A program made the translations under genes and the position numbers. Positions 7,179-35,524 of a DNA stretch of 64,000 nt are shown one piece after another; within the stretch, counting starts at the first letter, position 1; every line of letters begins with the position of its first letter. The notes beneath the pieces are model-generated. The model did not search any database, was not told the DNA's origin, and saw nothing but the letters and a program-made list of their open reading frames with translations. The stretch covers positions 13,269 to 77,268 of the forward strand of contig JAIXSR010000054.1 in assembly GCA_027484605.1 (NCBI GenBank), written 5' to 3'. Origin of the DNA: Hyphomicrobiales bacterium. Lineage in GTDB: Bacteria; Pseudomonadota; Alphaproteobacteria; Rhizobiales; Beijerinckiaceae.

Positions 7179-7512
7179 CCCTCGGGCTCCTTGCTTGCGA
7201 AACCCGAAAATGGGCGATGCATCAGCAGACAGCAATAGATCAAACGACAATGTGAACTGGCCGCGAGCGTCGGCATCGTCTTGCGAATTCCATGATGCTG
7301 CGGAGGAAATTATGTGATATTTGTCACAAACCGCTTGCAACTATCCGAAAATATTGCTGATAGAAGAGGGTGCGGTTGGAAGCCTCGAATCGAGTGTTCA
7401 GAAGATATCTCGTTTACCAAAGCAGGTAACCCGTTTTTCAATCGTTGGCTTAAAGAAAAATGAGGAACTGGGGGGTATTCTCCGCCAGGCCACCACAGAA
7501 GGAAAAACGCTC

Positions 7513-7929
7513 ATGGCGAATACAGTCGAGCAGGGTGATCTGATCGAACTGGCAGCCGAAATCGTGTCTGCCTATGTCAGCAACAACTCTGTTCCCGCCT
7601 CTGATCTTCCGGCCTTGATCAACGAGGTCTATACTGCGCTGACACGCGTTGGCACCCCGATCGTCGAGGCGGCGGCCGAGCCGCTGAAGCCTGCGGTTTC
7701 CGTGAAGAAATCGGTGCACAACGACTACATCATCTGCCTGGAAGACGGGAAGAAGTTCAAGTCGTTGAAGCGCCATCTCCGCACGCAGTACAACATGTCG
7801 CCGGAGCAGTATCGCGAGAAGTGGGGCCTGCCGGCCGACTATCCGATGGTCGCGCCGAACTATGCCGCCGCCCGTTCGCGCCTCGCGAAGGAAATGGGCC
7901 TCGGCCAGCAGCGCCGCCGCGCGCGCTGA
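7513..7929 (+). CDS. mucR: Ros/MucR family zinc-finger transcriptional regulator
   Basis: [36 protein letters not shown]...[47 protein letters not shown] is near-consensus Ros/MucR. Preceded by a 330-bp AT-rich region. Confidence 0.95.
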
Positions 7930-7968
7930 GGTTCCGGGCGCCCCGCGCGCCCGTCCCGGCAGAGAACA

Positions 7969-7992
7969 GGCGCCCCCGCGGGCGCCTTTTTT
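7969..7992 (+). terminator. Intrinsic terminator of mucR
   Basis: GGCGCCC-CCGC-GGGCGCC followed by TTTTTT. Confidence 0.75.
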
Positions 7993-8291
7993 CTGTCCGC
8001 GACAGCGCTGATCCGATCGCTGTTCCGCGTCCTGACATCTTGCCCGAGTGTTGTCCCGCGGGCGGGGTCAGGCGGCCCTGGTTTTCCGGCCGCTGCCCTT
8101 GCCAGGCTTCAGGCGCTGTCCACAAGCTCGACGAAAGCGGGGAATATTTTTTTTCGCTCCGCCACCGGCAGCCGCTTCACCATTGAGCTTCGCCCCCGCC
8201 GCGCCCTAGCCTTCGCGCGGGGAGATCGTTGCGGAGCATGATGATGGAGCCTTCATCCAGTAATTTGATAGTATTTGGAAATATTGATTTC

Positions 8292-8687
8292 ATGGCACGG
8301 CCCCGGCGCCATCGGCGCGAGCCCGGCACGGGCGACCCCGCCTTGCTTTGTGCCCGGGCGCTCCAGCGCCAGATGCAGCAGCAGATCTGCCGCGCCTGCG
8401 CCGCCGCCTGGGCGGGCGTTCCGGCCGAAGCCCTTCTCCGCCCCGCGCGGGAGGCCGCTGCCATCGTGCAGGCACGGCACACGGCCATCTATCTCGCGCA
8501 TATCGTCTTCGGCTTTTCGCTCACGCGGGCCGGTGCGATGGTCGGCCGCGACCGCACCTCCGCGCGCCATGCCTGCCTGCGCATCGAGGAACGCCGCGAG
8601 GATGTCCGCATCGACCGGGCGCTGGATGCCCTCGGCGCGGCCGTGGAGACCTGGCTGCGCGCCTTCGGCCCGGGAGAGGTGTCATGA
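8292..8687 (+). CDS. DnaA-domain-IV-like HTH protein; candidate GafY-type GTA activator subunit
   Basis: QARHTAIYLAHIVFGFSLTRAGAMVGRDRTSARHACLRIEERREDVRID matches the DnaA C-terminal DNA-binding domain pattern (R..AmYL....S...iG...gRdhtt..HAc..iE). No AAA+ part is present. Start set at ATG 8292, because codons 8229-8291 lie in an AT-rich patch with non-coding third positions; start uncertain. Confidence 0.65.
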   Translation: MARPRRHRREPGTGDPALLCARALQRQMQQQICRACAAAWAGVPAEALLRPAREAAAIVQARHTAIYLAHIVFGFSLTRAGAMVGRDRTSARHACLRIEERREDVRIDRALDALGAAVETWLRAFGPGEVS

Positions 8688-9532
8688 GCCCGCTCCGCGA
8701 ACCGCATGCCCGCCGGAAGACGGGCAAGGAACCGGCCCGGGAGCGAGCCGGCGGGATGCCCGCCGCCGCCGCGGATCCGCGCGAGCTCTCGCGCCTGCTC
8801 GCCCGGCTTGCCGAGCCCGGCATGCATGTGGAAGCGCAGCGCGGGTGGCTGGTCTTCCGGGATGCCCGCCGCCGCGTCTCGCTGGCCAGCCGGTTCCCGG
8901 CCAGCCTGCTGCAGCCGCTGCTGGCGGCCGGCGCGATCCGTGCCCTGCCGGGCGGGTGCCATGCCATCACCCCGGAGGGCAGGTCGAGGCTGGCGCGCGA
9001 GGCTGCCGGCGAGGTGGCGGCCCAGCATCGCGAGCTGGAATTCCGGCCGGACCCTGCCCGGCCGGGCGGGATGGTCGCCGTCAACCTGCGGGAGGACCCC
9101 CTGCAGATGCTGCGGCGGCATGGCCGGATGGCGCATCTCGTCGGCCCGGCCGAGATCGAGGCCGGCCTCCGCCTGCGGAAGGATATCCGCCTCGCCGGCA
9201 CGATTCCCGCCATCACGATGGACTGGACCCGGCCCGCCGTGGATGGTTCGGGCGGCGATGGCCTCGCCATGAGTGATCTGGTCGTCGCGGCGCGGCAGCG
9301 CGTCGACCGGGCCCTCCGGGCGGTGGGGCCGGATTTCTCCGGCATCCTCGTCGATATCTGCGGCTTCGGCAAAGGGCTGGAGCGGCTGGAACGCGAGCAG
9401 GCCCTGCCGGTCCGTTCGGGCAAGATCGCGCTGGCCTTCGCCCTGAGGATGCTGGCCCGCCATTACGGGCTCGGCAACCTGGCGACCGGTGCTCCGGCGG
9501 GGCGGATCCAGTCGGTCACGTTCGGCGGATAA
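8684..9532 (+). CDS. Candidate GafZ-type GTA activator/anti-terminator subunit (DUF6456-like)
   Basis: ATGA overlap with the preceding ORF, with GGGAGAGG upstream. 282 aa ending in ...ILVDICGFGKGLERLEREQALPVRSGKIALAFALRMLARHYGL, an HTH-like segment I recall from the GafA C-terminal half and GafZ. Family assignment is from memory, not searched. Confidence 0.55.
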   Translation: MSPLREPHARRKTGKEPARERAGGMPAAAADPRELSRLLARLAEPGMHVEAQRGWLVFRDARRRVSLASRFPASLLQPLLAAGAIRALPGGCHAITPEGRSRLAREAAGEVAAQHRELEFRPDPARPGGMVAVNLREDPLQMLRRHGRMAHLVGPAEIEAGLRLRKDIRLAGTIPAITMDWTRPAVDGSGGDGLAMSDLVVAARQRVDRALRAVGPDFSGILVDICGFGKGLERLEREQALPVRSGKIALAFALRMLARHYGLGNLATGAPAGRIQSVTFGG

Positions 9533-9544
9533 CGGCCTGCCCGG

Positions 9545-9964
9545 TCAGGTGGCGCGGCCGGCTTCGGCCTTGATCCGCGCCACCATCGACGCGAGGCCAT
9601 TCGCACGCTGCGAGGTCAGGTGGTCGCGCAACCCGATCTCGGCGAAGAAGGCCTGCGCATCCGTCGCCGCGATCTCGGCCGGCGGCCGGTTCGAGAACAT
9701 CGCGATCACGAGCGCGACCAGCCCCTTGACGATCAGCGCATCGCTGTCGCCGCGTATGGCGAGCCGCCCCGTGGCCGGGTCCCGGTCCATCATCAGCCAG
9801 ACCTGGCTGGCACAGCCGGGCACCTTGTAGGCGTCGGTATAGGCCCCCGCCGGCAGGGCTGGCAGCGTCTTGCCGAGATCGATGAGATAGCGGTAGCGAT
9901 CATCCCATTCGTCGAGGAAAGCGAGATCGTCGCGGATGGTCTGGAGCGCGGCGGGGATATCCAT
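9545..9964 (-). CDS. sufE: SufE-family cysteine desulfuration (sulfur acceptor) protein
   Basis: MDIPAALQTIRDDLAFLDEWDDRYRYLIDLGKTLPALP...KVPGCASQVWL...GDSDALIVKGLVAL. Conserved Cys in the PGCxSxVW motif. Confidence 0.9.
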   Translation of the reverse strand: MDIPAALQTIRDDLAFLDEWDDRYRYLIDLGKTLPALPAGAYTDAYKVPGCASQVWLMMDRDPATGRLAIRGDSDALIVKGLVALVIAMFSNRPPAEIAATDAQAFFAEIGLRDHLTSQRANGLASMVARIKAEAGRAT

Positions 9965-18370: not shown

Positions 18371-18847
18371 ATGGATGCGCCGCCGCCGTTCTGGAAGACA
18401 AAGAGCCTCGCCGAGATGACCGAGGCGGAATGGGAAAGCCTCTGCGACGGCTGCGGCCGCTGCTGCCTCATCAAGATGGAGGATGAGGATTCCGGACAGT
18501 TTTATTTCACCGATGTGGCCTGCCGGCTTTTCGACACCGCGTCCTGCCGCTGCCGCGACTATCCCAACCGCGACCGCGAAGTGCCCGATTGCGTGCGGTT
18601 GACGCCTGAAAATGCCGGCAGCTTCGGCTGGATGCCGCCCAGCTGCGCCTATCGCCTTCTGGCGGAAGGCAAATCCCTGCCGGATTGGCACCCCCTTGTC
18701 AGCGGCCGCCCCGAGAGCGTGCGCGAGGCCGGTGCCAGCGTCGCCGGGCGGGTCCATGCCCTCGAGGATGATCTCTCGCTGCCCGAACTGGTCGAGCGAA
18801 TCCGCGTCTGGCCCGGCCGTTGGCCCCGCAAGAAAAGAAGCGGATAA
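18371..18847 (+). CDS. ycgN: YcgN-family cysteine-cluster protein (UPF0260)
   Basis: [67 protein letters not shown]. Only the last 159 codons of track ORF 16277-18847 are real. The rest is the antisense shadow of the PBP gene. Confidence 0.9.
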
Positions 18848-18901
18848 ACGACTGGATTCTCTTCATTATATGAATTAAATCCGCGATTACGAAAAATATC
18901 C

Positions 18902-18930
18902 TTGACGCCGCGACGGTCTTGAGGCATAAA
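18902..18930 (+). promoter_or_regulatory. Candidate sigma70-type promoter of the GTA cluster
   Basis: TTGACG (18902-18907), a 17-nt spacer, then CATAAA (18925-18930). Sits just downstream of a 50-bp AT-rich block (18850-18900) that contains a GANTC (18855-18859). Pattern match only. Confidence 0.35.
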
Positions 18931-18954
18931 CCACCCACGTTCCCGAATTGCGCT

Positions 18955-19211
18955 CCAGCCCTCCCGCCTCTCCCCGCCGGGGAGACGCCGACGATGCGCA
19001 GCATCGGCGGGTGAGGGGGCGGAACATGGAGTGGCGCTCGAAGCCCCTCCAGCCCTCCCGCCTCTCCCCGATGTGGGGAGGCCGACGGCGCATAGCGCTG
19101 GCGGGTGAGGGGTCCGACCATGCATGGCTTCGTCGCGGCCTCTCCAGCCAGCCTCTCACTTCTCCCCGCCGGGGAGTGGCCGACGGCGCATAGCGCCGGC
19201 GGGTGAGGGGC
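18955..19211 (+). repeat. Three tandem REP-like elements (C1 18955-19020, C2 19049-19112, C3 19145-19211), subfamily 2
   Basis: Each copy follows CCAGCC(CT)CCCGCCTCTCCCCG-loop-GGGGAG-GCCGACG..GCGCA..GC..CGGCGGGTGAGGGG. All share one orientation with a period of 94-96 bp. Each holds two stem-loops, for example TCTCCCC-GCC-GGGGAGA at 18969-18985. Confidence 0.85.
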
Positions 19212-19286: not shown

Positions 19287-19643
19287 ATGCTCCCGAAACC
19301 TGCCCGGCCCCGCCGGCGGGCACGCCGCCCGTTGATCCACCGGCTCTGGTCGGCCGCGGAACGCCAGGTCGCGGAAATCGAGGCCCGGCTCGCCAGCCTC
19401 TCCGGCGACCCGGCCTTGCTCGAACGCGATGCCAAGACCCTTGCCGTCATCGCGCGGACCCTGCGCGATCTCGTTGCCCTCGATACCGAAACGGCCCCGG
19501 ACCCTCCGGCGCCGGAAAGGGACGCCCATGCCGGAAATCCTGTCCGCTCGCTCGAGGCCTTCCGTGACGAGCTTGCGCAGCGCCTTGATGCATTGCGTCG
19601 AGAACGGGCAGGCCCGGACCCTGCTGGAGGGGATGGGGCCTGA
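19287..19643 (+). CDS. GTA g1-position protein (candidate small terminase)
   Basis: CCGGAGG SD then MLPKPARPRRRARRPLIHRLWSAAERQVAEIEARLASL...: a basic N-terminus plus a coiled coil. Assigned by position only. The last 116 nt overlap terL. Confidence 0.5.
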   Translation: MLPKPARPRRRARRPLIHRLWSAAERQVAEIEARLASLSGDPALLERDAKTLAVIARTLRDLVALDTETAPDPPAPERDAHAGNPVRSLEAFRDELAQRLDALRRERAGPDPAGGDGA

Positions 19644-20904
19644 AGCGCTGGCGCGTTTCCTCGCCGACTGGCCGCTCTTCGCCCGGCCCGACCAGCTGCC
19701 GCCCGAGGGCGCGCAGGGCGGCGGGCCCTGGTCGACATGGCTGGTCCTGGGCGGGCGCGGCGCCGGCAAGACGCGCACCGGCGCCGAATGGGTGCGCGGG
19801 CTGGCCCTCGGCCTGCCGCCTTTCGCCGGGCGCCCGGCGGGGCGGATCGCCATCGTGGCGGAAACCCTGCAGGACCTGCGCGAGGTGATGGTGGAGGGCG
19901 TATCCGGCCTGCTCGCCATCCACCCGCCCGGGCAGCGCCCGCTCTGGCTCGCCTCGCGCCGCCGGCTCGAATGGCCGAACGGCGCGGTGGCGCAGGGCTT
20001 CTCCGCCGAGGATCCGGAATCGCTGCGCGGTCCGCAATTCGAGGCGGCCTGGTGCGATGAACTCGCCAAATGGAACCAGGCCGAGGCCACATTCGACATG
20101 CTGCAATTCGGCCTGCGCCTCGGTGAATGGCCCCGGCAGGTCATCACGACCACGCCGCGCCCGACCCGGCTGCTGAAGCGCCTCGCGGCCGATCCGCGCA
20201 CCGCGGTCAGCCGCGCCGCGACGCGGGCCAATGCCGCGCATCTCGCGCCGCATTTCCTCGCCACCATTGTCGGCCGCTATGCCGGCACCGCTCTGGGCCG
20301 GCAGGAACTGGACGGCGAATTCGTCGAGGAGCGGCCCGATGCGCTGTTCCGCCGCGAGGCCATCGAAGCCGGGCGGGTCGGGGCGGCGGAGGATTGCCGC
20401 CGCATCGTCGTGGCGGTCGATCCGCCGGCCGGCGGGGTTCGGGGCGGGCGCTGCGGCATCGTCGCGGCGGGCCTTGCGGCTTCCGGCCTTGCCTATGTGC
20501 TGGAAGATGCCTCGCTCGAACGCGCCACGCCCGAAGCCTGGGCGGGCCGGGCCATCGCCACCTATCGCCGGCTGCAGGCCGATGCCCTGCTCGTCGAGGT
20601 GAACCAGGGCGGCGAGATGGTGCGGTCCGTGCTGGCGACGGTCGACCCGGCAGTGCCGGTCACCATGCTCCGCGCCCGGCGCGGCAAGCATGCCCGGGCC
20701 GAACCCGTCGCCGCGCTCTATGCGCAGTGCCGTGTCCGCCATGCCGGCGCCTTCCCGGCGCTCGAGGAGGAGATGACGATGTTCGGCCCCGATGGCCTAC
20801 CCGGCGGCCGCTCGCCCGACCGGCTCGATGCGCTGGTCTGGGCCATCACCCATCTCTGCCTGCAGGGCGAGGCCGCCGCGCCGCGCATCCGCCGGCTGGA
20901 GTGA
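19528..20904 (+). CDS. terL: GTA/phage terminase large subunit (DNA-packaging protein), RcGTA g2 equivalent
   Basis: ...LADWPLFARPDQLPPEG...WSTWLVLGGRGAGKTRTGAEWV (Walker A)...VAVDPP... By hand count, third-position G/C in 19528-19643 is about 85% in this frame and about 56% in the g1 frame, which supports ATG 19528. Alternatives are ATG 19588 and 19633. Confidence 0.9.
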   Translation: MPEILSARSRPSVTSLRSALMHCVENGQARTLLEGMGPEALARFLADWPLFARPDQLPPEGAQGGGPWSTWLVLGGRGAGKTRTGAEWVRGLALGLPPFAGRPAGRIAIVAETLQDLREVMVEGVSGLLAIHPPGQRPLWLASRRRLEWPNGAVAQGFSAEDPESLRGPQFEAAWCDELAKWNQAEATFDMLQFGLRLGEWPRQVITTTPRPTRLLKRLAADPRTAVSRAATRANAAHLAPHFLATIVGRYAGTALGRQELDGEFVEERPDALFRREAIEAGRVGAAEDCRRIVVAVDPPAGGVRGGRCGIVAAGLAASGLAYVLEDASLERATPEAWAGRAIATYRRLQADALLVEVNQGGEMVRSVLATVDPAVPVTMLRARRGKHARAEPVAALYAQCRVRHAGAFPALEEEMTMFGPDGLPGGRSPDRLDALVWAITHLCLQGEAAAPRIRRLE

Positions 20905-20960
20905 GGGGCCCGATTGCCCGCTGACCGTTCCTGATCGCCCCCGAACCCCGAGATCCCCCG

Positions 20961-22133
20961 ATGATTCCCTGGCTCACCCGGCTTTTCGGCCGGACGGCGC
21001 CGCCGCGCCGCAAATCCACCATTCCGCTCGTTGCCCTGCATGGCCCGGGCGGCGGATTCCTGCCCGCGCGGCAGGGGGCCGGCCTCGTGGCGGCGGGCTA
21101 TCACCGCAACGCCATCGTCTATCGCTGCGTGCGGCTGGTGGCCGAGGCCGCGGCGAGTATCAGCTGGACCCTGCTCATCGATGGCCGCGAGGCGCCGGAC
21201 CATCCGCTGGCCCGGCTGCTGGAACGGCCCAATCCCGGCGCCAGCGGCACCGACCTGTTCGAGGCGCTCTACGGCCATCTCCTGCTCTCCGGCAATGGCT
21301 ATGTCGCCCGCGTCACCGGCCATGCCGGGCCGCTGGCGCTCCATGCGCTCCGGCCGGACCGGCTCAGCCTCGTGCCCGGGCCGGATGGCTGGCCGCTGGC
21401 CTATGATTATGCCGCCGGCGGCGCGGCGCTGCGCTTTTCCGCCGGTCCGGATGGCCCGGGCGACCTGCTCCATATCCGCCTGTTCGACCCGCTCAACGAC
21501 CAGCTCGGCTTCGCCCCGCTGGCGGCGGCGGAAACCGCGCTCGCCATGCATGACGCCGCCAATCGCTGGAACAAGGCGCTGCTCGACAATTCGGCCCGCC
21601 CTTCGGGCGCGCTGGTCTATGCTGCCACCGACAGCATGACGGAGACACAGTTCGACCGCCTGCGCGACGAGCTGGAAACGGCTTTCCAGGGCGCGGGCAA
21701 TGCCGGAAGGCCGATCCTGCTCGAGGGCGGGCTGGACTGGAAGCCGCTCTCGCTCAGCCCGCGCGACATGGATTTCCACGCGGCGCAGGCCGGCGCGGCG
21801 CGGGAGATCGCGCTCGCCTTCGGCGTGCCGCCGATGCTGCTCGGCCTGCCGGGCGACAATACCTACGCGAATTACGCCGAGGCCAACCGGGCGCTGCTGC
21901 GGCTGACGGTGCTGCCCATGGTGCAGCGGATGCAGGCGGCCTTCGCCCATTGGTTGCAGCCGCCGGAAGGCGGGATCCTGCGCTTCCGCCCCGATCTCGA
22001 TGCGATCGAGGCTTTGGCCGAGGAACGCGAGGCCCTCTGGCGCCGCGTCTCGGCCGCGCCCTTCCTCAGCGATGACGAGAAACGCGAGGCGCTCGGCTAT
22101 GGCCGGCAGGCGCGTCCGTCCCCTTCCGCATGA
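20961..22133 (+). CDS. HK97-family phage portal protein (RcGTA g3 equivalent)
   Basis: 390 aa. ...YHRNAIVYRCVRLVAEAAASISW...HPLARLLERPNP...LLLSGNGY...FGVPPMLLGLPGDNTYANYAEANRAL is the typical portal signature. Confidence 0.95.
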   Translation: MIPWLTRLFGRTAPPRRKSTIPLVALHGPGGGFLPARQGAGLVAAGYHRNAIVYRCVRLVAEAAASISWTLLIDGREAPDHPLARLLERPNPGASGTDLFEALYGHLLLSGNGYVARVTGHAGPLALHALRPDRLSLVPGPDGWPLAYDYAAGGAALRFSAGPDGPGDLLHIRLFDPLNDQLGFAPLAAAETALAMHDAANRWNKALLDNSARPSGALVYAATDSMTETQFDRLRDELETAFQGAGNAGRPILLEGGLDWKPLSLSPRDMDFHAAQAGAAREIALAFGVPPMLLGLPGDNTYANYAEANRALLRLTVLPMVQRMQAAFAHWLQPPEGGILRFRPDLDAIEALAEEREALWRRVSAAPFLSDDEKREALGYGRQARPSPSA

Positions 22134-22333
22134 GCGGCATCCTCGCCGTCTTTCTCGAGCGGGGCGATCTCGCCCATCTCGCCCTGTTCCTCTGGGCTGC
22201 CGGCGCCTCGGTGCTGCTGGCCCGCAGCCTGGCGGACCTAGCCGCCGCCCATCGCCGCTTCGACGAGTTCCTGCGCGAACTCGCCCGGTTCAACACCCGC
22301 CACGGAGACGAGAATGCCCCGCCGGACCCCTGA
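22130..22333 (+). CDS. Small hydrophobic protein at the RcGTA g3.5 position
   Basis: ATGA overlap with the portal stop. 67 aa with one hydrophobic helix (LALFLWAAGASVLLA). High third-position G/C. Confidence 0.6.
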   Translation: MSGILAVFLERGDLAHLALFLWAAGASVLLARSLADLAAAHRRFDEFLRELARFNTRHGDENAPPDP

Positions 22334-22496
22334 TCCCGCCGCGTCCCCCGCCACCCTGTTCCGCCGCTTCCTGGCGCTGCTGGCCCGGCTGCAGCCGTCG
22401 CCCGGCAAGGCCCCCGCCGCGCCCGAGATCAAGGGCCGCATCACCCGGCTCGACCCGGCCGCCCGCCGCGACAGCCGGGGAAAGCCGCGCGCATGA
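22314..22496 (+). CDS. Second small ORF between portal and protease (hypothetical, 60 aa)
   Basis: Overlaps the previous ORF by 20 nt. Its TGA overlaps the protease ATG (ATGA at 22493-22496). About 90% G/C at third positions by hand count. No recognisable family. Confidence 0.35.
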   Translation: MPRRTPDPAASPATLFRRFLALLARLQPSPGKAPAAPEIKGRITRLDPAARRDSRGKPRA

Positions 22497-23077
22497 AGGC
22501 CGGCCCCTTTTCCGCTTCCCCGAATTCCGGCCGGCGCCGCCCTCCGCCGGCCGGACGGGATATCCGCCCCCGGCCCCTCTCCCCCGACGGGGCGGATATC
22601 CCGGCTTCTCCCCCGCCCGATGCCGGGCTCTTCGAAGGCTATGCCAGCCTGTTCGGCGTGATGGATCTCGGCCGCGACGTGGTCATGCCCGGCGCGTTCC
22701 GCCATTCGCTGACGCGGCGCGGCGCGGGGGGCATCCGCCTGCTCTGGCAGCATGATCCGGCCCGGCCGATCGGCCGCTGGACGCGCCTCGACGAGGATGG
22801 CCGCGGCCTCCGCGTGGCGGGCCGGCTCGATCTCGGGCAATCGCTCGCCCGCGAGGTGCATGGGCTCATGCGGCGCGGCCTCGTGGATGGCCTCTCCATC
22901 GGCTACCGCACCGAGCGCGAGCGCCGCGACCCCGAAACCGGCCTGCGCCGGCTGGACGAGGTGGATCTCTGGGAGATCTCGCTCGTCACCTTCCCGATGC
23001 TGCCGCAGGCCCGCGTCACCGCCATCAAGGCGATGCCCGGCCCGCTGCCCGCCTTCCCCGCGATCCGTCCGCTGTGA
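22493..23077 (+). CDS. HK97-family prohead maturation protease (RcGTA g4 equivalent) with an atypical N-terminal extension
   Basis: FEGYASLFGVMDLGRDVVMPGAF...LLWQHD...PIG...GLSIGY...LWEISLVTFPMLPQARV. ATG 22493 is the only in-frame start upstream of the conserved core. This leaves about 46 low-complexity residues ahead of it. Confidence 0.9.
   Translation: MKAGPFSASPNSGRRRPPPAGRDIRPRPLSPDGADIPASPPPDAGLFEGYASLFGVMDLGRDVVMPGAFRHSLTRRGAGGIRLLWQHDPARPIGRWTRLDEDGRGLRVAGRLDLGQSLAREVHGLMRRGLVDGLSIGYRTERERRDPETGLRRLDEVDLWEISLVTFPMLPQARVTAIKAMPGPLPAFPAIRPL
22556..22603. repeat. 15-bp perfect inverted repeat with an 18-nt loop, inside the protease 5' coding region
   Basis: CGGGATATCCGCCCC (22556-22570), loop CGGCCCCTCTCCCCCGAC, GGGGCGGATATCCCG (22589-22603). 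The loop resembles the left arm of the REP hairpin. Confidence 0.85.
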
Positions 23078-23109
23078 CGGCCCGCCCCCTCCCGCCAAAG
23101 GACCCCGCC

Positions 23110-24309
23110 ATGGAACCGACCGAAACCCCGATCCGCGCCCCCGAGACCAAGATCATGGAAACCTACGAGGCTTTCCGCCAGGCCAATGACGAGAGCCTCG
23201 CCGAGGGCCAGCGCAAGGCCGCGCCCGACATCCTGCTCGAGGAGAAGGTCGAGCGGATCGGGCGCGAGCTGGACCGGCTGAGCATGAATGCCCAGCGCCC
23301 GCCTCTGGCCGGCGCCGGCTCCGCGCTTTCGCCGGAGCGGCTGGAGCACAAGCTCGCCTTCGACGCCTATCTCCGCAAGGGCCAGACCGAGCCCTTGCGC
23401 CTGATCGAGGCCAAGGCGCTGAACGGCGCCATCGGGCCGGATGCCGGCTATCTCGTGCCGCCGGATATCGAGGCGGCCGTGCTTTCGCGCATGGCCGGCC
23501 TCTCGCCGATCCGCGGCATCGCCTCCGTCCGCTCGCTGGCCGGCACCAGCCTGAAGAAGGCGGTCTCGCCCGAAGGCGCGCATCAGGGCTGGGCCAGCCT
23601 CGGCGCGCCCTCCAGCGCCATCACGCCCGGCCTCTATGCCGAGCTGGGCTTCCAGACCATGGAGCTTTTCGCCCAGCCCGCGGCGACGCAGGCCCTGCTC
23701 GACGATGCGGCGGTGGATGTGGAATCCTGGATCGGCGAGGAGATCGAGCTGACCTTCGCCGAGGCCGAGAGCGAGGCCTTCGTCAAGGGCGACGGCATCA
23801 GCCGGCCGCGCGGCTTCCTTGCCTATCCGCAGGTGCCCGAGGCCCAGTGGAGCTGGGGCCAGATCGGGAGCATCGCCACCGGCGCCGCCGGCGCCTTTCC
23901 GGCCTCCATGCCGTCCGACATCCTGATCGAGCTGGCCCATGCCGTGGGCTCGGTCTACCGGCAGAATGCCTGTTTTGTCATGAACCGCCGGACGCAGAGC
24001 GCGATCCGCCGCTTCAAGGACACGACGGGCAATTATCTCTGGGCGCCGCCGACCCTGCTGGGTGGCAAGGCGACGATCCTCAACTTCCCCGTGATCGAGG
24101 CGGAGGCCATGCCGGATATCGCGCCCGACAGCCCCGCCATCGCCTTCGGGGATTTCCGGCGCGGCTATCTCGTGCTCGACCGCGTCGGCATCCGCGCCCT
24201 GCGGGATCCCTATTCGGCCAAGCCCTATGTGCTGTTCTACACCACCAAGCGCGTGGGCGGCGGCATGCAGGATTTCCGGGCGATCAAGCTGCTGCGGTTT
24301 GCGGCGTGA
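23110..24309 (+). CDS. HK97-family major capsid protein (RcGTA g5 equivalent)
   Basis: 399 aa. An N-terminal delta/scaffold-like helical region (ETYEAFRQANDESLAE...), then ...GPDAGYLVPPDIEAAVL...FVKGDGISRPRGFL...NYLWAPP...PYVLFYTTKRVGGGMQDFRAIKLLRFA. Confidence 0.95.
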   Translation: MEPTETPIRAPETKIMETYEAFRQANDESLAEGQRKAAPDILLEEKVERIGRELDRLSMNAQRPPLAGAGSALSPERLEHKLAFDAYLRKGQTEPLRLIEAKALNGAIGPDAGYLVPPDIEAAVLSRMAGLSPIRGIASVRSLAGTSLKKAVSPEGAHQGWASLGAPSSAITPGLYAELGFQTMELFAQPAATQALLDDAAVDVESWIGEEIELTFAEAESEAFVKGDGISRPRGFLAYPQVPEAQWSWGQIGSIATGAAGAFPASMPSDILIELAHAVGSVYRQNACFVMNRRTQSAIRRFKDTTGNYLWAPPTLLGGKATILNFPVIEAEAMPDIAPDSPAIAFGDFRRGYLVLDRVGIRALRDPYSAKPYVLFYTTKRVGGGMQDFRAIKLLRFAA

Positions 24310-24357
24310 GGGCAGGGGCCGCGCGATGCCGGCCCCTACCCGCTGCCGCTGGTCCTT

Positions 24358-24414
24358 GCCCCTCACCCGCTCGCTGACGCTCGCGACCTCTCCCCCGAGG
24401 GGAGAGGTGGGCGG
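24358..24414 (-). repeat. REP-like palindromic element, copy E
   Basis: The reverse complement reads CCTCTCCCCTCGGGGGAGAGGTCGCGAGCGTCAGCGAGCGGGTGAGGGGC. It fills the gap between the convergent capsid and protease stops. A separate 8-bp hairpin AGGGGCCG/CGGCCCCT lies at 24314-24337. Confidence 0.8.
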
Positions 24415-25239
24415 TCAGTCCGCCAGCGAAAGCGGGCGCCCGCTCGCCAGGTTGCGGCCGCCCCAGCCGCGCACGATCTGGTCGATCCAGGCGCGGTGCG
24501 GTGCGACGCGCACAGCCTGGGCCGTGGTGCCGCAGGTCTGGGCATTGCCGAATTTCTCGCGGCCATAGACCACGCCGACCACGGTGCTGCCATCGAGCAC
24601 CGGCCCGCCGGAATCGCCCGTGCATACGGCGAAATCGCTGAGATCGGCATCGGTGCTGTAGCCGAGCCGGAGGAAGCGCGGATAGAGCCGCGGCAGCACG
24701 GTGACCTTCGCGCTGCGCAGGACACCGGCGCTGGCCTCGTCCCGGTCGGCGGCGAGGCCGAACCCGGCAATCGTGCGGCGCACGCCGACCTGATGCGCCG
24801 AATCATCCGATTCGAGCACCATCGGCCGGAACCGCGCCGGCAGGGGGCTGTCGAGCCGGATCAGCGCGAGATCGATCGAGACGCGCGCCTTGGGCGAGAA
24901 GCCGGGATTGACCGCGCGGGCCATGACCCGCTGCAGCACATGCGAGCCCTCTTCCTTGTAGGCCACCGCGACCTGCCGGTTGCCGGCCACGCAATGCGCG
25001 GCGGTGAGGATGATCTCGGATGTGATGATCGTGCCGGTGCAGGCGCCGTGCTTGTTGCCTTGCTTCGAAAGAACCATGACGAGATGCGAGGCCAGCCCGC
25101 CATCCGGGCTGGCGGCCTGACCGCCAAGCGCCAGGGCAGCGCCCGGTGCAAGGAAGGCCAGCCCCGGAACGAGGGCAGCGCAGAAGGCGACAGACGCGGC
25201 GGCGGAGGAGCGGAACGGCTTTTTCACGCCGCGGAACAT
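24415..25239 (-). CDS. Secreted trypsin-like (S1/chymotrypsin-fold) serine protease, inserted on the opposite strand inside the GTA cluster
   Basis: Signal peptide MFRGVKKPFRSSAAASVAFCAALVPGLAFLAPGAALA. Catalytic triad contexts LTAAHCV (His), IDLALIRL (Asp) and CTGDSGGPV (Ser). The start could be 25284. Confidence 0.85.
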   Translation of the reverse strand: MFRGVKKPFRSSAAASVAFCAALVPGLAFLAPGAALALGGQAASPDGGLASHLVMVLSKQGNKHGACTGTIITSEIILTAAHCVAGNRQVAVAYKEEGSHVLQRVMARAVNPGFSPKARVSIDLALIRLDSPLPARFRPMVLESDDSAHQVGVRRTIAGFGLAADRDEASAGVLRSAKVTVLPRLYPRFLRLGYSTDADLSDFAVCTGDSGGPVLDGSTVVGVVYGREKFGNAQTCGTTAQAVRVAPHRAWIDQIVRGWGGRNLASGRPLSLAD

Positions 25240-25337
25240 TGCATCGCCCGCGCCCCGGCGCAAGCGCGAAGGATCGCGGCCCATGGCGGCCGTGCCGGGC
25301 CGGGCGGCAGGCGCAACTCGAGAATGAAGGAAACCGC

Positions 25338-25913
25338 ATGATTCCCATCCTGATCGAGGGCCCGGCCCTCGAACCCGTCCCGCTGGCCGAAGCCCGGCTC
25401 TGGCTGCGGGTGGAGGACCCCGCCGAGGACGAGCTGATTGCCGGCCTCGCCGTGGCGGCGCGGCTGATGGTCGAGGCCGAGATCGGCCAGGTGCTGGTGG
25501 GCCAGACCTGGCGCCTGATCGGCCATGCCTGGCCCGCCGATGGCCGCATCCCCGTGCGGGCCGGCCCGGTTCTCGCCGTGCAGGGCGGGCGCGTCTTCCA
25601 CCGCGAGGGGCGCCTGACCGAGTTGCCCCCGGCCGCTTTCCGGCTGCTGCCCTTCACCGATCCGCCGGTTGTCGAGGCCCTGCTGATGCCCTTGCCCGGC
25701 CGCCCCTCCGCCGGGATCGAGATCGATCTCCGCCTCGGCTTCGGCGAGAGCCCGGCCGATGTGCCCGGCCAGATCCGGCTCGCCATCCGCCGGCTGGTCG
25801 CGCTCTGGTACGAGAATCGCGGCGAGGGCGGCGAGGGCCAGCCCGGGATCCCGCCGCAGATCCGCGCCCTGCTCCGGCCCTTCCGCCGCGCCCGGCTGGG
25901 AGGCCGGCCATGA
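25338..25913 (+). CDS. Head-tail connector/adaptor (gp6-like; RcGTA g6 equivalent)
   Basis: GAAGGA SD then MIPILIEGPALEPVPLAEARLWLRVEDPAEDELIAGLAVAARLMVEAEIGQVL... is the typical phage gp6 DNA-packaging/head-tail connector N-terminus. Confidence 0.85.
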   Translation: MIPILIEGPALEPVPLAEARLWLRVEDPAEDELIAGLAVAARLMVEAEIGQVLVGQTWRLIGHAWPADGRIPVRAGPVLAVQGGRVFHREGRLTELPPAAFRLLPFTDPPVVEALLMPLPGRPSAGIEIDLRLGFGESPADVPGQIRLAIRRLVALWYENRGEGGEGQPGIPPQIRALLRPFRRARLGGRP

Positions 25914-26251
25914 CCGCGCGGGAGCGCCCGCCGCGCATCGGCGAACGCCGCCACCGCCTGCTCCTCGAAATGCCGGTCGCCGCCTTGGATCCGCTGGGCG
26001 GGCGGCAATGGCTCTGGCAGGCCATCGGCCCGGTCTGGGCCCGGATCGAGCCGGTCGAGCCGAAGCCGCCCCGCCCCGGCCTTGCCGCGCCGCCCGCGCC
26101 GGAATTCCGCATCACGCTCGGCTGGCAGGCCGGCATCACCGCCGGCATGCGGTTCACCCGCGATGCGCAGCATTTCCCCATCCGCGCCGTGCTCGACCCG
26201 GCCGGAAACCGCCGCAGCCTCGTCTGCCTGTGCCGGGAGGAACCCGCATGA
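25910..26251 (+). CDS. Head-tail adaptor/stopper (SPP1 gp16-like; RcGTA g7 equivalent)
   Basis: ATGA coupling with the previous gene. 113 aa. ...RHRLLLEMPV...WARIEP... fits the head-closure family pattern and position. Confidence 0.8.
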   Translation: MTARERPPRIGERRHRLLLEMPVAALDPLGGRQWLWQAIGPVWARIEPVEPKPPRPGLAAPPAPEFRITLGWQAGITAGMRFTRDAQHFPIRAVLDPAGNRRSLVCLCREEPA

Positions 26252-26649
26252 CCGCGCACCCCGTCGCCGTGCTCAAGGCTGCCCTGCGCGCCCATTGGCT
26301 GGCCCGGCCCGACCTTGCCGCCGCTTTCGGCGAGCGCATCGTCGAGACCCTGCCGCCCGGCCCCGGCCTGCCCTTCCTGCTGATGGGCGAGGCGTCCTGC
26401 CGCGACGAGCCCGGCGGCCATGGGGTCGAGCTCGGCCTGCTGCTGGTCAATGCGGAGGAGGGCACGGCCGGCCTCCTCGCCCTGCTGGCCGGGCTGGAAG
26501 CCGCCCTCGCCGACATGCCGGCCGCCGGCCCGGCCCGCCGCATCGTCTCGGCCCGGCTGGTCGAGGCCCGCATCGCGCATGACCCGCGCGAGCGCCGCAG
26601 CGAGGCCCGCCTGCGCCTGCGCGCCTTTCTCGAAACCCCGGAGGAATGA
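26248..26649 (+). CDS. Tail terminator-like protein (DUF3168; RcGTA g8 equivalent)
   Basis: ATGA coupling. MTAHPVAVLKAALRAHWLARPDLAAAFGERIVETLPPGPGLPFLLMGE... matches the DUF3168 pattern I recall. Confidence 0.8.
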   Translation: MTAHPVAVLKAALRAHWLARPDLAAAFGERIVETLPPGPGLPFLLMGEASCRDEPGGHGVELGLLLVNAEEGTAGLLALLAGLEAALADMPAAGPARRIVSARLVEARIAHDPRERRSEARLRLRAFLETPEE

Positions 26650-26652
26650 CCC

Positions 26653-27063
26653 ATGGCCGCCCAAAGCGGAAAGGACCTGCTGCTCAAGCTCGATGACGGC
26701 GAGGGCCAGTTCATCACCCTGGCCGGCCTGCGCAGCCGTCGCCTCGTCTTCGATGCGCAGACCGTCGACATCACCCATGCCGAATCCGCCGGGCGCTGGC
26801 GCGAATTGCTCGATGGCGGCGGCATCCGCCGGGCCAGCCTGCAGGGGCAGGGCCTGTTCCGCGATGCCGCCTCGGATGCCCGCGCGCGGCAGCTTTTCTT
26901 CGAGGGGCTGGTCCGGCCCTGGCAGGTGGTGATCCCCGGTTTCGGCATCGTCAGCGGCCCGTTCCAGATCCGCGCGCTCGAATATCGCGGCGACCATGCC
27001 GGCGAGGTGCAGTTCGAGATCCAGCTCGACAGCGCCGGCGCGCTGGCCTTCACCCCGGCCTGA
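26653..27063 (+). CDS. Major tail (tube) protein, TP901-1 family (RcGTA g9 equivalent)
   Basis: MAAQSGKDLLLKLDDGEGQFITLAGLRSRRLVFDAQTVDITHAES...RELLDGGGIRRASLQGQGLF...F...GPFQIRALEYRGDHAGEVQFEIQLDSAG. Confidence 0.9.
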   Translation: MAAQSGKDLLLKLDDGEGQFITLAGLRSRRLVFDAQTVDITHAESAGRWRELLDGGGIRRASLQGQGLFRDAASDARARQLFFEGLVRPWQVVIPGFGIVSGPFQIRALEYRGDHAGEVQFEIQLDSAGALAFTPA

Positions 27064-27084
27064 CGCCATCAGGAATCTGACCCC

Positions 27085-27504
27085 ATGACGAACCTGCATC
27101 GTTCGGAAATCGCCCTCGAGATCGGGGGCGAGCGCCTCGTCCTGCGCCTCTCGCTGCAGGCGCTGGCGGAAATCGAGGCCCGCCTCGCGCCCGGCGGGCT
27201 GGCCGCGCTCGGCCATCGCCTCGCCGATGGCGGCCTTGCCATGGCCGATATCATCGCGCTGGCCGGGGCACTCGTCCGCGGTGGCGGCCGGCCGCTCGCC
27301 GATTCCGCCCTGGCCACGCGGCTGGAGGCGGCCGACCTGCCGGCCCTGGTCTCCGCCATCGCCGCCGTCTTCGCCAGCGCGCTGCCGGAAGGGGCGGCCG
27401 CGCCAAACCCTTGCCGGCCGCAACCGGCAGCGTGGATTGGGGCGAGCTGCTCGCCTTCGGTCTCGGCCGGTTGCGGCTTGCCCCTGACGCCTTCTGGTCG
27501 ATGA
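27085..27504 (+). CDS. GTA tail assembly chaperone (RcGTA g10 equivalent)
   Basis: MTNLHRSEIALEIGGERLVLRLSLQALAEIEARLAPGGLAALGHRLADG is the signature of the 'gene transfer agent family protein'. Its 3' third overlaps the next ORF in the -1 frame. Confidence 0.75.
   Translation: MTNLHRSEIALEIGGERLVLRLSLQALAEIEARLAPGGLAALGHRLADGGLAMADIIALAGALVRGGGRPLADSALATRLEAADLPALVSAIAAVFASALPEGAAAPNPCRPQPAAWIGASCSPSVSAGCGLPLTPSGR
27405..27411 (+). promoter_or_regulatory. Candidate programmed -1 ribosomal frameshift site A_AAC_CCT
   Basis: The heptamer fits X_XXY_YYZ in the zero frame of the g10-like ORF (codons CCA AAC CCT). The -1 frame is open from here to 27638. A short hairpin TGCCGG-CCGCAA-CCGGCA follows at 27412-27429. 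Confidence 0.4.
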
Positions 27505-27638
27505 GCCTGCCCGAATTCCGCGCCGCCGCCGGCTGCTTCGGCCCGCCCGCCCTCCCGCCGGATCGCGCCGCCCTCGAGGCGCTGATGCGGCAATTCCCCG
27601 ATTCCCACCCGGAGTTCCCCCATGTCCGAGACGAATGA
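27411..27638 (+). CDS. Second tail-chaperone ORF (rcc01693-like; RcGTA g10.1 equivalent); probably made as a frameshift fusion or from a TTG start
   Basis: ...VDWGELLAFGLGRLRLAPDAFWSMSLPEFRAAAGCFG... is the conserved motif of the small GTA/phage tail chaperone family. The only start in the track is TTG 27411, which directly abuts the slippery heptamer. Confidence 0.7.
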   Translation: MPAATGSVDWGELLAFGLGRLRLAPDAFWSMSLPEFRAAAGCFGPPALPPDRAALEALMRQFPDSHPEFPHVRDE

Positions 27639-28074
27639 CCCCGCCGCGCCGCTGGCCCGCTCGATGGCCGAACTGGATGGCCTCACCCGCCGCTTCGGCC
27701 AGACGCTGAGCCGCAGCCTCGCCGAGGGAATCGTCGAGGGCCGCAATCTCGGCGAGGTGATGCGCGGCCTCGGCGACCAGCTTCTCCGTCTCTCGCTCCG
27801 GCAGGGGCAGGGCGCATTGGCCGGTGGCCTCGATGCCGCGATCCAGGCCGGCCTTTCGGGCCTGACCGGCCTTGTCCGCCCGGAAGGCGGGGGTGGCGGG
27901 CTGTTCGGCGGCAGCGGCACCGGCTGGATGGCGCCGCAGGCCGCGCCCGCCAGCCCGGCGCCGATCATCCAGATGCAGGTCCATGCGCAGGATGCCGGCT
28001 CGTTCCTGCGGGCCGAGCACCAGGTCAGCGCCGCGCTCGCCCGGGCCGTGGCGCGCGGCCAGCGCAGCCTGTGA
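27622..28074 (+). CDS. Short tail tape measure protein (RcGTA g11 equivalent)
   Basis: 150 aa, helical N-half (LARSMAELDGLTRRFGQTLSRSLAEGIVEG...), Gly-rich middle (PEGGGGGLFGGSGTGW). Position between the chaperones and the distal tail protein. Confidence 0.7.
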   Translation: MSETNDPAAPLARSMAELDGLTRRFGQTLSRSLAEGIVEGRNLGEVMRGLGDQLLRLSLRQGQGALAGGLDAAIQAGLSGLTGLVRPEGGGGGLFGGSGTGWMAPQAAPASPAPIIQMQVHAQDAGSFLRAEHQVSAALARAVARGQRSL

Positions 28075-28718
28075 GCGCCGCCATGGCCGGCTCCTTCCAC
28101 GAGATCCGCTTTCCGCTCGATATCGCGCTTGGCGCCCGGGGCGGCCCGGAACGCCGGACGGAGATCATCACCACCGCCTCCGGCGCGGAACTCCGCATCC
28201 AGCGCTGGGCCGATTCCCGCCGCCGCTACGAGGCCGGCTACGGCGTGCGCAGCCTGGCGCGCCTTGCCGAACTGGCCGCCTTCTTCGAGGAACGACGCGG
28301 CCGGCTGCATGGCTTCCGCTTCCGCGACCGGCTGGACTGGTCCTCCGCGCCCGGCAATGGCGCACCCACACCCTTCGACCAGCCGCTCGGCACCGGTGAC
28401 GGGCTGAGCCGGGATTTCCCGCTCGCCAAGACCTATGGCGGCGCCTTCGACCCCTATCGCCGCCCCATCGCCAAGCCGGTGGCCGGCTCGCTCCGGCTCG
28501 GCCGCGACGGGGCCACGCTTCCCGCCGGCCTCGCCAGCCTCGATGCGGCGACGGGGCAAGTCACCTTTGCCGAACCGCCGCCGCCCGGCGCGGTGCTGAC
28601 CGCCGGCTTCCTGTTCGACGTACCGGTCCGCTTCGATACCGACCGGCTCGATATCGATCTCTCTGCCTTCGAGGCCGGTGCCATCCCCTCGATCCCCCTC
28701 GTCGAAATCCGGATCTGA
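28071..28718 (+). CDS. Distal tail protein (DUF2460; RcGTA g12 equivalent)
   Basis: GTGA coupling (GTG 28071; alternative ATG 28083). ...FHEIRFPLDIALGARGGPERRTEIITTASGAELRIQRWADSRRRYEAGYGVRS is the DUF2460 signature. Confidence 0.85.
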   Translation: MSAAMAGSFHEIRFPLDIALGARGGPERRTEIITTASGAELRIQRWADSRRRYEAGYGVRSLARLAELAAFFEERRGRLHGFRFRDRLDWSSAPGNGAPTPFDQPLGTGDGLSRDFPLAKTYGGAFDPYRRPIAKPVAGSLRLGRDGATLPAGLASLDAATGQVTFAEPPPPGAVLTAGFLFDVPVRFDTDRLDIDLSAFEAGAIPSIPLVEIRI

Positions 28719-28721
28719 CCC

Positions 28722-29603
28722 ATGCGCATCCTGCCGCCTTCCCTTGCCGGGGCCCTCTCCGGCGAGGCCGCCACCCTGTGCCATGCCTGGCTGCTGACGC
28801 GCCGTGACGGCACCATCCTCGCTTTCACCGACCATGACCGCCCCTTCGAGGCGGGCGGGCATCTCTTCGAACCCGGCGCCAGCCTGGAGACCACGGCCTC
28901 CGAGCAGGGCGCCGGCCTCGCTTCCGGCGGCGGCGAGATCCGCGGCGTGCTCGACAGCGAAAGGCTGACCGAACGCGCCATCCGCGCCGGGCTCTATGAC
29001 GGCGCCGAATTGCGCCGCTACCGTGTGGACTGGCAGGCGCCGGCGCTGGATTTCCTCGAGGATGTGACGATCCTCGGCGAGATCCGCCGGGTCGATGGCC
29101 GCTTCCTCGCGGAGACGCGGCTGCCCTTCCTGGCCCTCGATGAGGAACGCGGCCGCCGCTATACCCGCACTTGCGATGCCGAGCTGGGCGATGCCCGCTG
29201 CGGGGTGGATCTTTCCGGCCCGCCCTTCCGCCTTGCCGCCACCATTGCCGAGGCCACGGCCATCGCTCTGCGCTGCCCGGCGCTGGAAGCCGCGCCGGAG
29301 GGCTTGTTCGCCCGTGGCCGCATCCGCATGCTCACAGGCCCCTTGGCCGGCGCGGAGGCGGCCGTGCGGGATCATCCCGGCGGCGGCTGGCTCCGCCTCT
29401 GGCAGGCGCTGCCGCTGGCGCCCGTCCCGGGCGAGACGCTGCTCGCCTCGGCCGGCTGCGACAAGAGCCTGACGACCTGCCATGCCCGTTTCGGCAATGC
29501 CGCCCGGTTCCGGGGCTTTCCGCATATCCCGCCGGCGGATGCGGTTCTGGCCTGGGCCCGGCCGGGGGAGGGGCGGCATCTTGGCCGCCCGCTCGTGCCA
29601 TGA
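28722..29603 (+). CDS. Baseplate hub protein (DUF2163; RcGTA g13 equivalent)
   Basis: ...EAATLCHAWLLTRRDGTILAFTDHDRPF...YDGAELRRYRVDWQ...CDAELGDARCGVDL...CDKSLTTCHARFGNAARFRGFPHIP. Confidence 0.85.
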   Translation: MRILPPSLAGALSGEAATLCHAWLLTRRDGTILAFTDHDRPFEAGGHLFEPGASLETTASEQGAGLASGGGEIRGVLDSERLTERAIRAGLYDGAELRRYRVDWQAPALDFLEDVTILGEIRRVDGRFLAETRLPFLALDEERGRRYTRTCDAELGDARCGVDLSGPPFRLAATIAEATAIALRCPALEAAPEGLFARGRIRMLTGPLAGAEAAVRDHPGGGWLRLWQALPLAPVPGETLLASAGCDKSLTTCHARFGNAARFRGFPHIPPADAVLAWARPGEGRHLGRPLVP

Positions 29604-30052
29604 GCGCGGCGTTCCGCCCGGCCGATCCGGACCGCGTCGTCGCCGAGGCCCGGCTCTGGCTCGGCACGCCCTATGCGCATCAGGCCTCGCTGCCGGGGAT
29701 CGGCTGCGATTGCCTCGGCCTGATCCGCGGCGTCTGGCGCTCCCTGAACGGGCCCGAACCGGGCCGCCTGCCGGCCTACACGCCCTTCTGGGCCGAGACC
29801 GGCAGCGGCGATCCGCTGCTCGCCATGGCGGAACGGCATCTCCTGCCCGCCGGGCCGGGGCCGCTTGCCCCCGGCGAGGTGCTGCTCTTCCGCTGGCGCG
29901 AGACGCTGCCCGCCAAGCATTGCGGCATCGCCACCGGGCCCGGCCGGTTCATCCATGCCCATGACGGCGCTGCCGTTGCCGAGGTCGCGCTGCTGCCGGC
30001 CTGGCGACGGCGCCTCGCGGGCCGCTTCCTCTTTCCGGACCGGAGGTCCTGA
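29600..30052 (+). CDS. NlpC/P60-family cell-wall peptidase (RcGTA g14 equivalent)
   Basis: ATGA coupling. ...EARLWLGTPYAHQASLPGIGCDCLGLIRGVW (catalytic Cys)...HCGIAT...FIHAHDG (His). Confidence 0.9.
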   Translation: MSAAFRPADPDRVVAEARLWLGTPYAHQASLPGIGCDCLGLIRGVWRSLNGPEPGRLPAYTPFWAETGSGDPLLAMAERHLLPAGPGPLAPGEVLLFRWRETLPAKHCGIATGPGRFIHAHDGAAVAEVALLPAWRRRLAGRFLFPDRRS

Positions 30053-33954: not shown

Positions 33955-33966
33955 GGAGGCGCCATC

Positions 33967-35514: not shown

Positions 35515-35524
35515 TCGAGCGCGG

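Follow-up and report, generated by a model that had tools for sequence, protein, structure and literature searches.

A fused and a split form have been described for the activator of gene transfer agent (GTA) genes in Alphaproteobacteria. GafA of Rhodobacter capsulatus (rcc01865) activates the R. capsulatus GTA (RcGTA), and its central region binds the omega subunit of RNA polymerase, Rpo-omega (Sherlock & Fogg 2022, Cell Rep, PMC9638019). In Caulobacter crescentus the pair was named GafY (CCNA_01111) and GafZ (CCNA_01112), and the two proteins are necessary and sufficient for GTA production (Gozzi et al. 2022, PMC9632790). GafY binds at the GTA promoter and at its own, activates sigma-70 promoters together with IHF and contacts sigma-70 domains 3-4, and GafZ lets RNA polymerase pass a terminator composed of three 150-bp GC-rich direct repeats (Tran & Le 2024, PMC11150451). 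GafY had been named HdaB, a protein binding HdaA, in an earlier study that tried the Brucella abortus homolog heterologously in Caulobacter (Frandi & Collier 2019, PMC7049699). The split form is the commoner of the two: among 759 GafZ homologs, 494 have an adjacent GafY, and GafZ, GafY and GTA genes co-occur across Alphaproteobacteria (PMC9632790). In Hyphomicrobiales, most gafA homologs encode proteins of 22-32 kDa and follow a small DnaA-like gene; this split gafA has mucR upstream, sufE downstream and DUF6456 in the gafA gene (PMC9638019, Fig. S2). Here, we describe two overlapping open reading frames (ORFs) of a Hyphomicrobiales bacterium, ORF1 and ORF2, that are probably a gafYZ-type (split gafA) operon. 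They are located in a 64,000-nt stretch of contig JAIXSR010000054.1 (assembly GCA_027484605.1, positions 13,269 to 77,268), referred to below as the window.

Both ORFs lie on the plus strand and were read as ORF1 at 8229-8687 (152 aa from a TTG codon) and ORF2 at 8684-9532 (282 aa). The stop codon of the former overlaps the start codon of the latter in an ATGA at 8684-8687. An earlier note on this DNA, made from the letters alone, had claimed such an overlapping pair and quoted one peptide from each ORF; both peptides are found in the translations, and the ATGA is confirmed.

Residues 62-119 of ORF1 match the Pfam family Bac_DnaA_C (PF08299) with 34.3 bits (cutoff 31.5). This was the only match in the Pfam search, which found no AAA+ module, and the NCBIfam PRK06030 matches fall under their cutoffs. 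Domain IV of Escherichia coli DnaA (PDB 1j1v) is matched with E 3.5e-4, and ORF1 residues 56-126 align with this structure and with that of Mycobacterium tuberculosis (3pvp). The equivalents of R399, D433, T435 and H439, which make base and backbone contacts, are retained (our numbering of the alignment). ORF1 is thus, as had been claimed, an isolated DnaA domain IV; since domains I-III of full DnaA, and hence the AAA+ ATPase or oligomerisation module, are missing, it cannot be a replication initiator. Two further alignments connect ORF1 with the GafA family. Its residues 79-131 correspond to positions 28-80 of P0080, a fused GafA-type protein from Rhodovulum (E 1e-5), and a homolog (P0147, E 1.2e-8) from a metagenome-assembled genome (MAG) labelled Caulobacteraceae precedes a 242-aa DUF6456 gene, the two genes overlapping by 4 nt.

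Residues 132-262 of ORF2 match Pfam DUF6456 (PF20057) with E 1.5e-32 and 112.9 bits (cutoff 26.3), spanning profile positions 2-135 of 136, and the central and C-terminal parts of a fused GafA-type protein are aligned as well, with ORF2 residues 91-263 corresponding to P0080 residues 181-376 (BLASTP E 1e-24). The RLAEPG block of the fused GafA-type central region also aligns with ORF2. The 242-aa DUF6456 protein encoded next to P0147 gives a full-length match to ORF2, covering residues 28-264 (BLASTP E 1e-22). A profile search with ORF2 gave 270 matches, of which 120 were listed, none with R. capsulatus or C. crescentus as its source name; its relatives comprise split-type proteins of 250-320 aa and Rhodobacterales proteins of ~354-443 aa with an extra N-terminal helix-turn-helix. 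NCBIfam provides no name for ORF2, the PHROG match is a family of unknown function, and no Pfam sigma family is matched.

Because ORF1 and ORF2 align in order with P0080, together they reproduce a fused GafA-type protein. The domain content, this in-order alignment with fused GafA-type proteins and the presence of an RcGTA-type cluster uphold the proposed identity of a GafY-like and a GafZ-like protein. The pair is therefore likely to be the gafYZ-type operon of a Rhabdaerophilum-related Hyphomicrobiales bacterium and, judging by homology, would drive its GTA; a role as the dedicated GTA switch of this organism is inferred from the same homology. The layout is that of C. crescentus, with a DnaA-domain-IV-only protein followed by a homolog of the GafA C-terminal part, and the neighbours of the pair in this genome are mucR and sufE. 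In R. capsulatus GafA, as compared via fused Rhodobacterales homologs, the DnaA-like domain, the central region and DUF6456 follow in the same order. R. capsulatus GafA is one polypeptide, whereas the split found here comes behind the N-terminal DNA-binding domain. The DnaA-like gene, DUF6456 gene, mucR and sufE of the published Hyphomicrobiales split gafA are all present, and no difference in kind was found.

The pairing of these genes was followed in one profile scan of species-representative genomes, which yielded 72 loci, all from named Hyphomicrobiales or unclassified MAGs; some of the loci are incomplete, and the synteny counts are lower bounds. A gafY-like ORF lies directly upstream of the ORF2 homolog in at least 63 of the 72 loci, with a 4-nt ATGA or GTGA overlap in 35. 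The mucR gene is upstream on the same strand in at least 60 loci, and sufE is convergent within 1.5 kb downstream in at least 60. The homologs are paired far beyond chance. The best genome match is Rhabdaerophilum sp. SD176, with 80% identity for ORF2; for ORF1, the best identity is ~72%.

It had been supposed that such a pair was uncharacterised in Rhizobiales-type genomes. This has to be given up, as the split arrangement with mucR and sufE was already reported by Sherlock & Fogg (PMC9638019). The published split form came without experimental data, and the present locus is a further species. As the order has been known since 2022 to have this split gene pair with these neighbours, little is added here as discovery. 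The locus marks the likely GTA on-switch in an unstudied high-GC Hyphomicrobiales lineage and gives coordinates for the start codon choice, a candidate GTA promoter with a leader element, and a conserved control region preceding the switch. A split gafA of this kind could tell the Caulobacter mechanism (sigma-70 and anti-termination) from the Rhodobacter mechanism (omega) outside the two model organisms.

ORF1 is unlikely to start at TTG 8229; ATG 8244 or ATG 8292 is a better fit. In an alignment of five genomes, this TTG is no in-frame start in the four closest relatives, and an indel is seen between 8229 and 8244; the TTG was rejected. ATG 8244 is conserved among the closest relatives, is preceded by GGAG at 8233-8236 and gives a product of 147 aa; gene callers assigned 147 aa to a 96%-identical protein (P0134), and ORF1 homologs of 147-148 aa exist. 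The alternative start at ATG 8292 gives 131 aa, and one annotated homolog (P0137) begins at the equivalent position. The 16 codons from ATG 8244 to ATG 8292 are very AT-rich: the GC content at third codon positions (GC3) is ~0.27 by manual count over the 15 codons at 8247-8291, versus 0.82-0.90 in the called genes of the window. Other long ORFs of 333, 394, 324 and 300 aa overlap the pair (8275-9532 on the plus and 8489-9463 on the minus strand). They were read as by-products of a 70% GC content and not taken as genes; the two reported frames are those with homologs.

The AlphaFold2 model of ORF2 (60 sequences, mean pLDDT 80.8) contains a confident winged-helix-like domain at ~31-108 and a helical C-terminal domain at ~139-260. 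Neither a Foldseek search of PDB with the whole model (nothing at E <= 1e-3) nor a sequence search of PDB gave a meaningful match. A separate model of the C-terminal domain (residues 128-270, pLDDT 76.8) retrieved extracytoplasmic function (ECF) sigma factors or region 4 structures as 9 of its top 13 Foldseek PDB matches, with E 0.7-2.5 and probabilities up to 0.91. Among them are 3hug (probability 0.8-0.9) and 5fgm (probability 0.90, target-normalised TM-score 0.77, root-mean-square deviation 1.6 A over 58 columns), neither with a significant E-value. Residues ~196-260 superpose on ECF sigma region 4, likewise with non-significant E-values, and regions 2 and 3 of the sigma-70 family are lacking. 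The helix-turn-helix-like peptide quoted in the earlier note for the ORF2 C-terminus is present in the translation. The C-terminal-domain model lends weak support to the sigma-region-4-like fold claimed in the literature for this part of the protein.

Neither Q21 nor lambda Q was found among the top 50 Foldseek PDB matches listed for the ORF2 models. ORF2 has no sequence relationship to the anti-terminators lambda Q, Q21 and Bartonella BrrG, and no Q-like fold turned up among those matches; Tran & Le likewise saw no similarity of GafZ to Q-type anti-terminators (PMC11150451). Against viral models, the C-terminal-domain model matched phage DUF6456 proteins with E 1.2e-4 to 2.4e-3 and probability 1.00, Roseobacter phage RDJL Phi 1 being among these phages. 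The fold shared by the models would fit a phage origin of the regulator.

The structural genes of the presumed regulon are found where they had been placed, ~10 kb downstream of the pair: the first small GTA ORF starts 9.75 kb past the end of ORF2. Pfam matches between 19429 and 34740 include the terminase, portal, S78 protease, major capsid, DUF2460, baseplate hub, GTA_TIM/Rcc01698_C and GH108. In front of the cluster, within an AT-rich island at 18829-18909, a promoter-like element was identified that is presumed to be the target of the pair. This element and the CAYGYTCCNGAAYTGCG motif following it are kept in relatives with 78% and 51% ORF2 identity, the equivalents being at 20268-20320 in locus L076 and 20085-20137 in locus L078, with the pattern TTGACG/A, 17 nt, CATAAA/TATGCT. 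The version in L078 (51% identity) has a score of 10 of 12 as a sigma-70-like promoter. The conserved spacer, CCGYRACGG, sits where Caulobacter has the GafZ-binding element.

The promoter-like element is followed by GC-rich tandem repeats in the leader of the cluster. Each 94-bp unit carries the palindrome CTCTCCCCGCCGGGGAG, which has 12 matches versus 1.9 expected, and the units fold at -42 to -47 kcal/mol with z-scores of -0.0 to -2.9. In L076, a 122-bp repeat of 1.8 copies occupies the same place (20371-20591); in L078, a perfect hairpin with a U-tract, a canonical terminator, is found instead (~20257-20290, -25.1 kcal/mol, z -4.0). The repeats are a candidate termination or pause element for an anti-terminator to override, and leaders that are structured or terminating in the equivalent place of three genomes would suit anti-termination of the GafZ type. 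The RcGTA-like cluster of Caulobacter also has GC-rich direct and inverted repeats near its start. The repeats in the present leader resemble Caulobacter terGTA in kind, not in position: the Caulobacter repeats (150 bp, three copies) come after the first gene, whereas those of the window (94 bp, 2.7 copies) precede the first GTA ORF.

A possible course of events can be outlined from the work on C. crescentus and R. capsulatus, from which all of the following steps are transferred. The pair would mostly be kept off, probably by a repressor whose target would be the conserved AT-rich stretch in front of gafY, and the ATGA overlap would hold both subunits at a fixed ratio. Sites for the GafY-like protein would lie in front of its own operon and of the GTA promoter near 18.9 kb, and the bound protein would aid initiation by sigma-70 RNA polymerase. 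The GafZ-like protein would bind GafY, load on RNA polymerase at the GTA promoter and render it resistant to termination. The polymerase could then pass the GC-rich leader repeats and later hairpins, and ~15.5 kb of GTA genes would be transcribed as a single unit.

Several observations weigh against such a role of the pair or against details of it. The homology was judged with Pfam models and with orthologues from a MAG labelled Caulobacteraceae and from Rhodobacterales other than R. capsulatus, and the literature searched yielded no experimental data on GTA activation for this organism or any Hyphomicrobiales pair. The mechanism differs between the two models, with omega involved in Rhodobacter and sigma-70 with anti-termination in Caulobacter, and its transfer to a third order is uncertain. 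The -35 element of the GTA promoter is near-consensus here (TTGACG), whereas the Caulobacter promoter depends on its activator because its -35 is degenerate. Consensus scans of 18700-19500 gave no canonical terminator or promoter, and the repeats are not canonical terminators; the RNA fold of the whole GTA leader is not distinctive (z -1.44), and the z-scores of the repeats are mostly ordinary. The upstream regions of gafY and of the GTA cluster share no significant motif, their longest common words being 7-8 nt.

Individual candidates for regulatory sites were rejected as well. As a shared GafY box, ATCCAGT occurs 7 times versus 3.6 expected, and DnaA-box-like sites are as frequent as expected (43 versus 42). 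A single IHF-like site has one mismatch and is unconserved by our reading of the five-genome alignment. Rfam searches of the gafY upstream region and of the GTA leader returned sub-threshold noise only, with no family assigned to the former.

For ORF2, a function as a sigma-like or omega-recruited initiation factor after the model of R. capsulatus GafA, and not as a processive anti-terminator, has to be considered and is in our judgement doubtful. The winged-helix centre would then contact omega, the C-terminal sigma-region-4-like helix-turn-helix would bind the promoter, and ORF1 would contribute DNA binding in trans. Such a function would agree with the binding of Rpo-omega by the GafA central region (PMC9638019), whose RLAEPG block is aligned in ORF2, with the ECF sigma region 4 structures at the top of the Foldseek list, and with the lack of Q21 and lambda Q among the 50 matches listed. 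However, the sigma region 4 matches are non-significant (E 0.7-2.3), Caulobacter GafZ travels with RNA polymerase and overrides terminators (PMC11150451), and leader repeats or a terminator occur in three related genomes. Initiation and anti-termination are not mutually exclusive.

The distance between the pair and the GTA cluster has little bearing on function. The earlier note had suggested that the whole 8-35 kb region might be one regulatory system, a view not supported by the housekeeping genes found on both strands between 9.5 and 18.8 kb: sufE, a gene for a 563-aa protein, a peptidoglycan-binding protein, DUF1491, an unknown ORF, DUF1254, PBP1A (on the minus strand) and YcgN. The gene order from murJ to the terminase recurs in relatives, down to 51% identity, so the 10-kb spacing is conserved chromosomal synteny in the family and not an island or operon. 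With the proximity thus deprived of functional weight, the pair might regulate non-GTA genes, for example of stationary phase or host interaction, next to a GTA cluster inherited in synteny. Caulobacter GafY binds ~18 further promoters (PMC11150451), in Brucella, homologs of gafA were classed as fitness or virulence factors (PMC9638019), and the gafY and GTA promoters of the window have no common motif. We nevertheless regard this as quite improbable, given that direct activation of the GTA cluster by this family was seen in both organisms with experimental data, that GafZ, GafY and GTA genes co-occur across Alphaproteobacteria (PMC9632790), and that an intact-looking cluster with a conserved putative promoter is present here.

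That ORF1 is primarily an HdaB-type replication regulator, acting as a DnaA-domain-IV mimic that titrates HdaA, blocks the regulatory inactivation of DnaA and causes re-initiation on exit from stationary phase, with a secondary link to GTA, is very unlikely. In its favour, CCNA_01111 was first described as HdaB and co-immunoprecipitates with HdaA, over-initiation was seen in Caulobacter with homologs of three Alphaproteobacteria, B. abortus among them (PMC7049699), and ORF1 shares the HdaB architecture. Against it, those phenotypes were reassigned to GTA induction (PMC9632790), the 4-nt overlap with the DUF6456 gene in 35 of 63 loci and the fusion in Rhodobacterales argue for a joint function, and ORF1 keeps the equivalent of Arg-399, reported absent in Caulobacter HdaB, and so looks DNA-binding.

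The region upstream of the putative gafYZ-type operon contains several conserved elements, which are listed with the other features in Table 1. The stem and T-run of the mucR terminator are kept in five genomes; with mucR terminated, the pair should have a promoter of its own. The non-coding blocks downstream of this terminator are near-invariant in five genomes whose proteins differ by ~20-28%, and are more conserved than the neighbouring coding sequence. They are confined to the closest clade and were not found in more distant loci. The blocks may be either promoter or operator DNA or a 5' untranslated region. The AT-rich island at the 5' end of gafY is one of just 10 in the window, and represents either an atypical N-terminal coding stretch or promoter or regulator-binding DNA. 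In 55 loci, an AT-rich island occurs in the interval from mucR to the gafY core, with a median minimum GC content of 0.33 versus 0.62 for the locus, a comparison biased by the fact that most of each locus is coding. Two of the 10 islands of the window are located at 7285-7473, in front of mucR.

Two of the most AT-rich spots of the window are the GTA promoter and the 5' end of gafY. From this and from the place of mucR in front of the pair in 60 of 72 loci, MucR could be imagined to silence gafYZ in Hyphomicrobiales through the AT-rich island of gafY, and possibly the GTA promoter, in the role that belongs in Caulobacter to the LexA-like RogA (a helix-turn-helix with an inactive S24 domain); the leader repeats would then be a version of terGTA for the GafZ-like protein to override. 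We hold this proposal to be unlikely. A link between MucR and GTA control is absent from the literature searched beyond the noted synteny, and the proximity of mucR and the AT-rich islands could equally reflect an inherited gene order and ordinary AT-rich promoters.

Table 1. Coordinates of the features of the putative gafYZ-type operon, its surroundings and the GTA cluster in the window
Feature	Position	Strand	Description
mucR/ros zinc-finger gene	7513..7929	+	Pfam ROS_MUCR, E 1.1e-53; conserved upstream neighbour
mucR intrinsic terminator	7968..7992	+	8-bp GC stem (7968-7987) followed by a T-run; from terminator scan
Near-invariant non-coding blocks	8112..8243	+	CTGTCCACAAG, ACGAAAGCGGGGAAT, CATTGAGCT, CCCTAGCCTTCGCGCGGGGAGAT; from five-genome alignment
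AT-rich island at gafY 5' end	8235..8303	.	Minimum 25% GC over 40 nt; genome 70% GC
gafY/hdaB-like gene	8244..8687	+	DnaA-domain-IV-type helix-turn-helix only; Pfam Bac_DnaA_C
gafZ-like gene	8684..9532	+	282 aa; winged-helix-like N-terminal domain and DUF6456
sufE	9545..9964	-	Pfam SufE, E 2e-42; convergent downstream; synteny marker, not part of the mechanism
Putative GTA promoter and motif	18902..18953	+	TTGACG, 17-nt spacer, CATAAA; early-transcribed motif CACGTTCCCGAATTGCG
GC-rich tandem repeat in GTA leader	18953..19210	+	94-bp unit, 2.7 copies; TRF score 289
RcGTA-type structural cluster	19287..34740	+	First small ORF via large terminase to GH108 muramidase; presumed regulon

Within the GTA cluster, a GC-rich element akin to the leader repeats (CCCCTCACCCGC ... 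CTCTCCCCCGAGGGGAGAGGTGGGCGG) is found at 24340-24420, just past the major capsid gene, and may be an internal hairpin or attenuator. Directly downstream of the cluster, an OmpR-family response regulator and a sensor kinase are encoded at 34834-36931. The R. capsulatus gafA gene is under CtrA and quorum-sensing control; the response regulator next to the GTA cluster here (34834-35514) was rejected as CtrA, with 177.6 bits against the CtrA model (cutoff 350) and higher scores for PmrA/PhoP-like models, its best NCBIfam matches, which are themselves under their cutoffs. No CtrA box was found in the upstream regions of gafY and of the GTA cluster.

The genes flanking the pair also include msrB. 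The same gene order as in the window was seen in the MAG GCA_035628275.1, labelled Caulobacteraceae (L073-L075, 2705-5846), except that a PAS_5 gene separates mucR from the DnaA_C gene and that sufE is preceded by a 95-aa ORF. This points either to mucR/sufE synteny beyond Hyphomicrobiales or to a misclassified MAG.

A single record filed as a phage, MW462191.1 ('Bacteriophage sp.', 103 kb), contains an ORF2 homolog, and it was rejected as a phage copy on account of its bacterial neighbourhood. As in the window, the neighbourhood in this record (L079) is bacterial and comprises protease II, a transcriptional regulator at the place of mucR, the gafY-like and gafZ-like genes and a sulfur acceptor protein. 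The record is probably a piece of bacterial chromosome deposited as phage, perhaps because of GTA genes aboard. The gene of MW462191.1 at the position of the ORF for the 563-aa protein is annotated as 'EvgS'. In the window this ORF (10556-12247) has a coding-like GC3, and it is kept beside sufE in relatives, where the products are 546-556 aa long. The protein has no Pfam, NCBIfam or PDB sequence match, and its segment LHDSVAPFNAGLGFLEMI looks like a histidine-kinase H-box.

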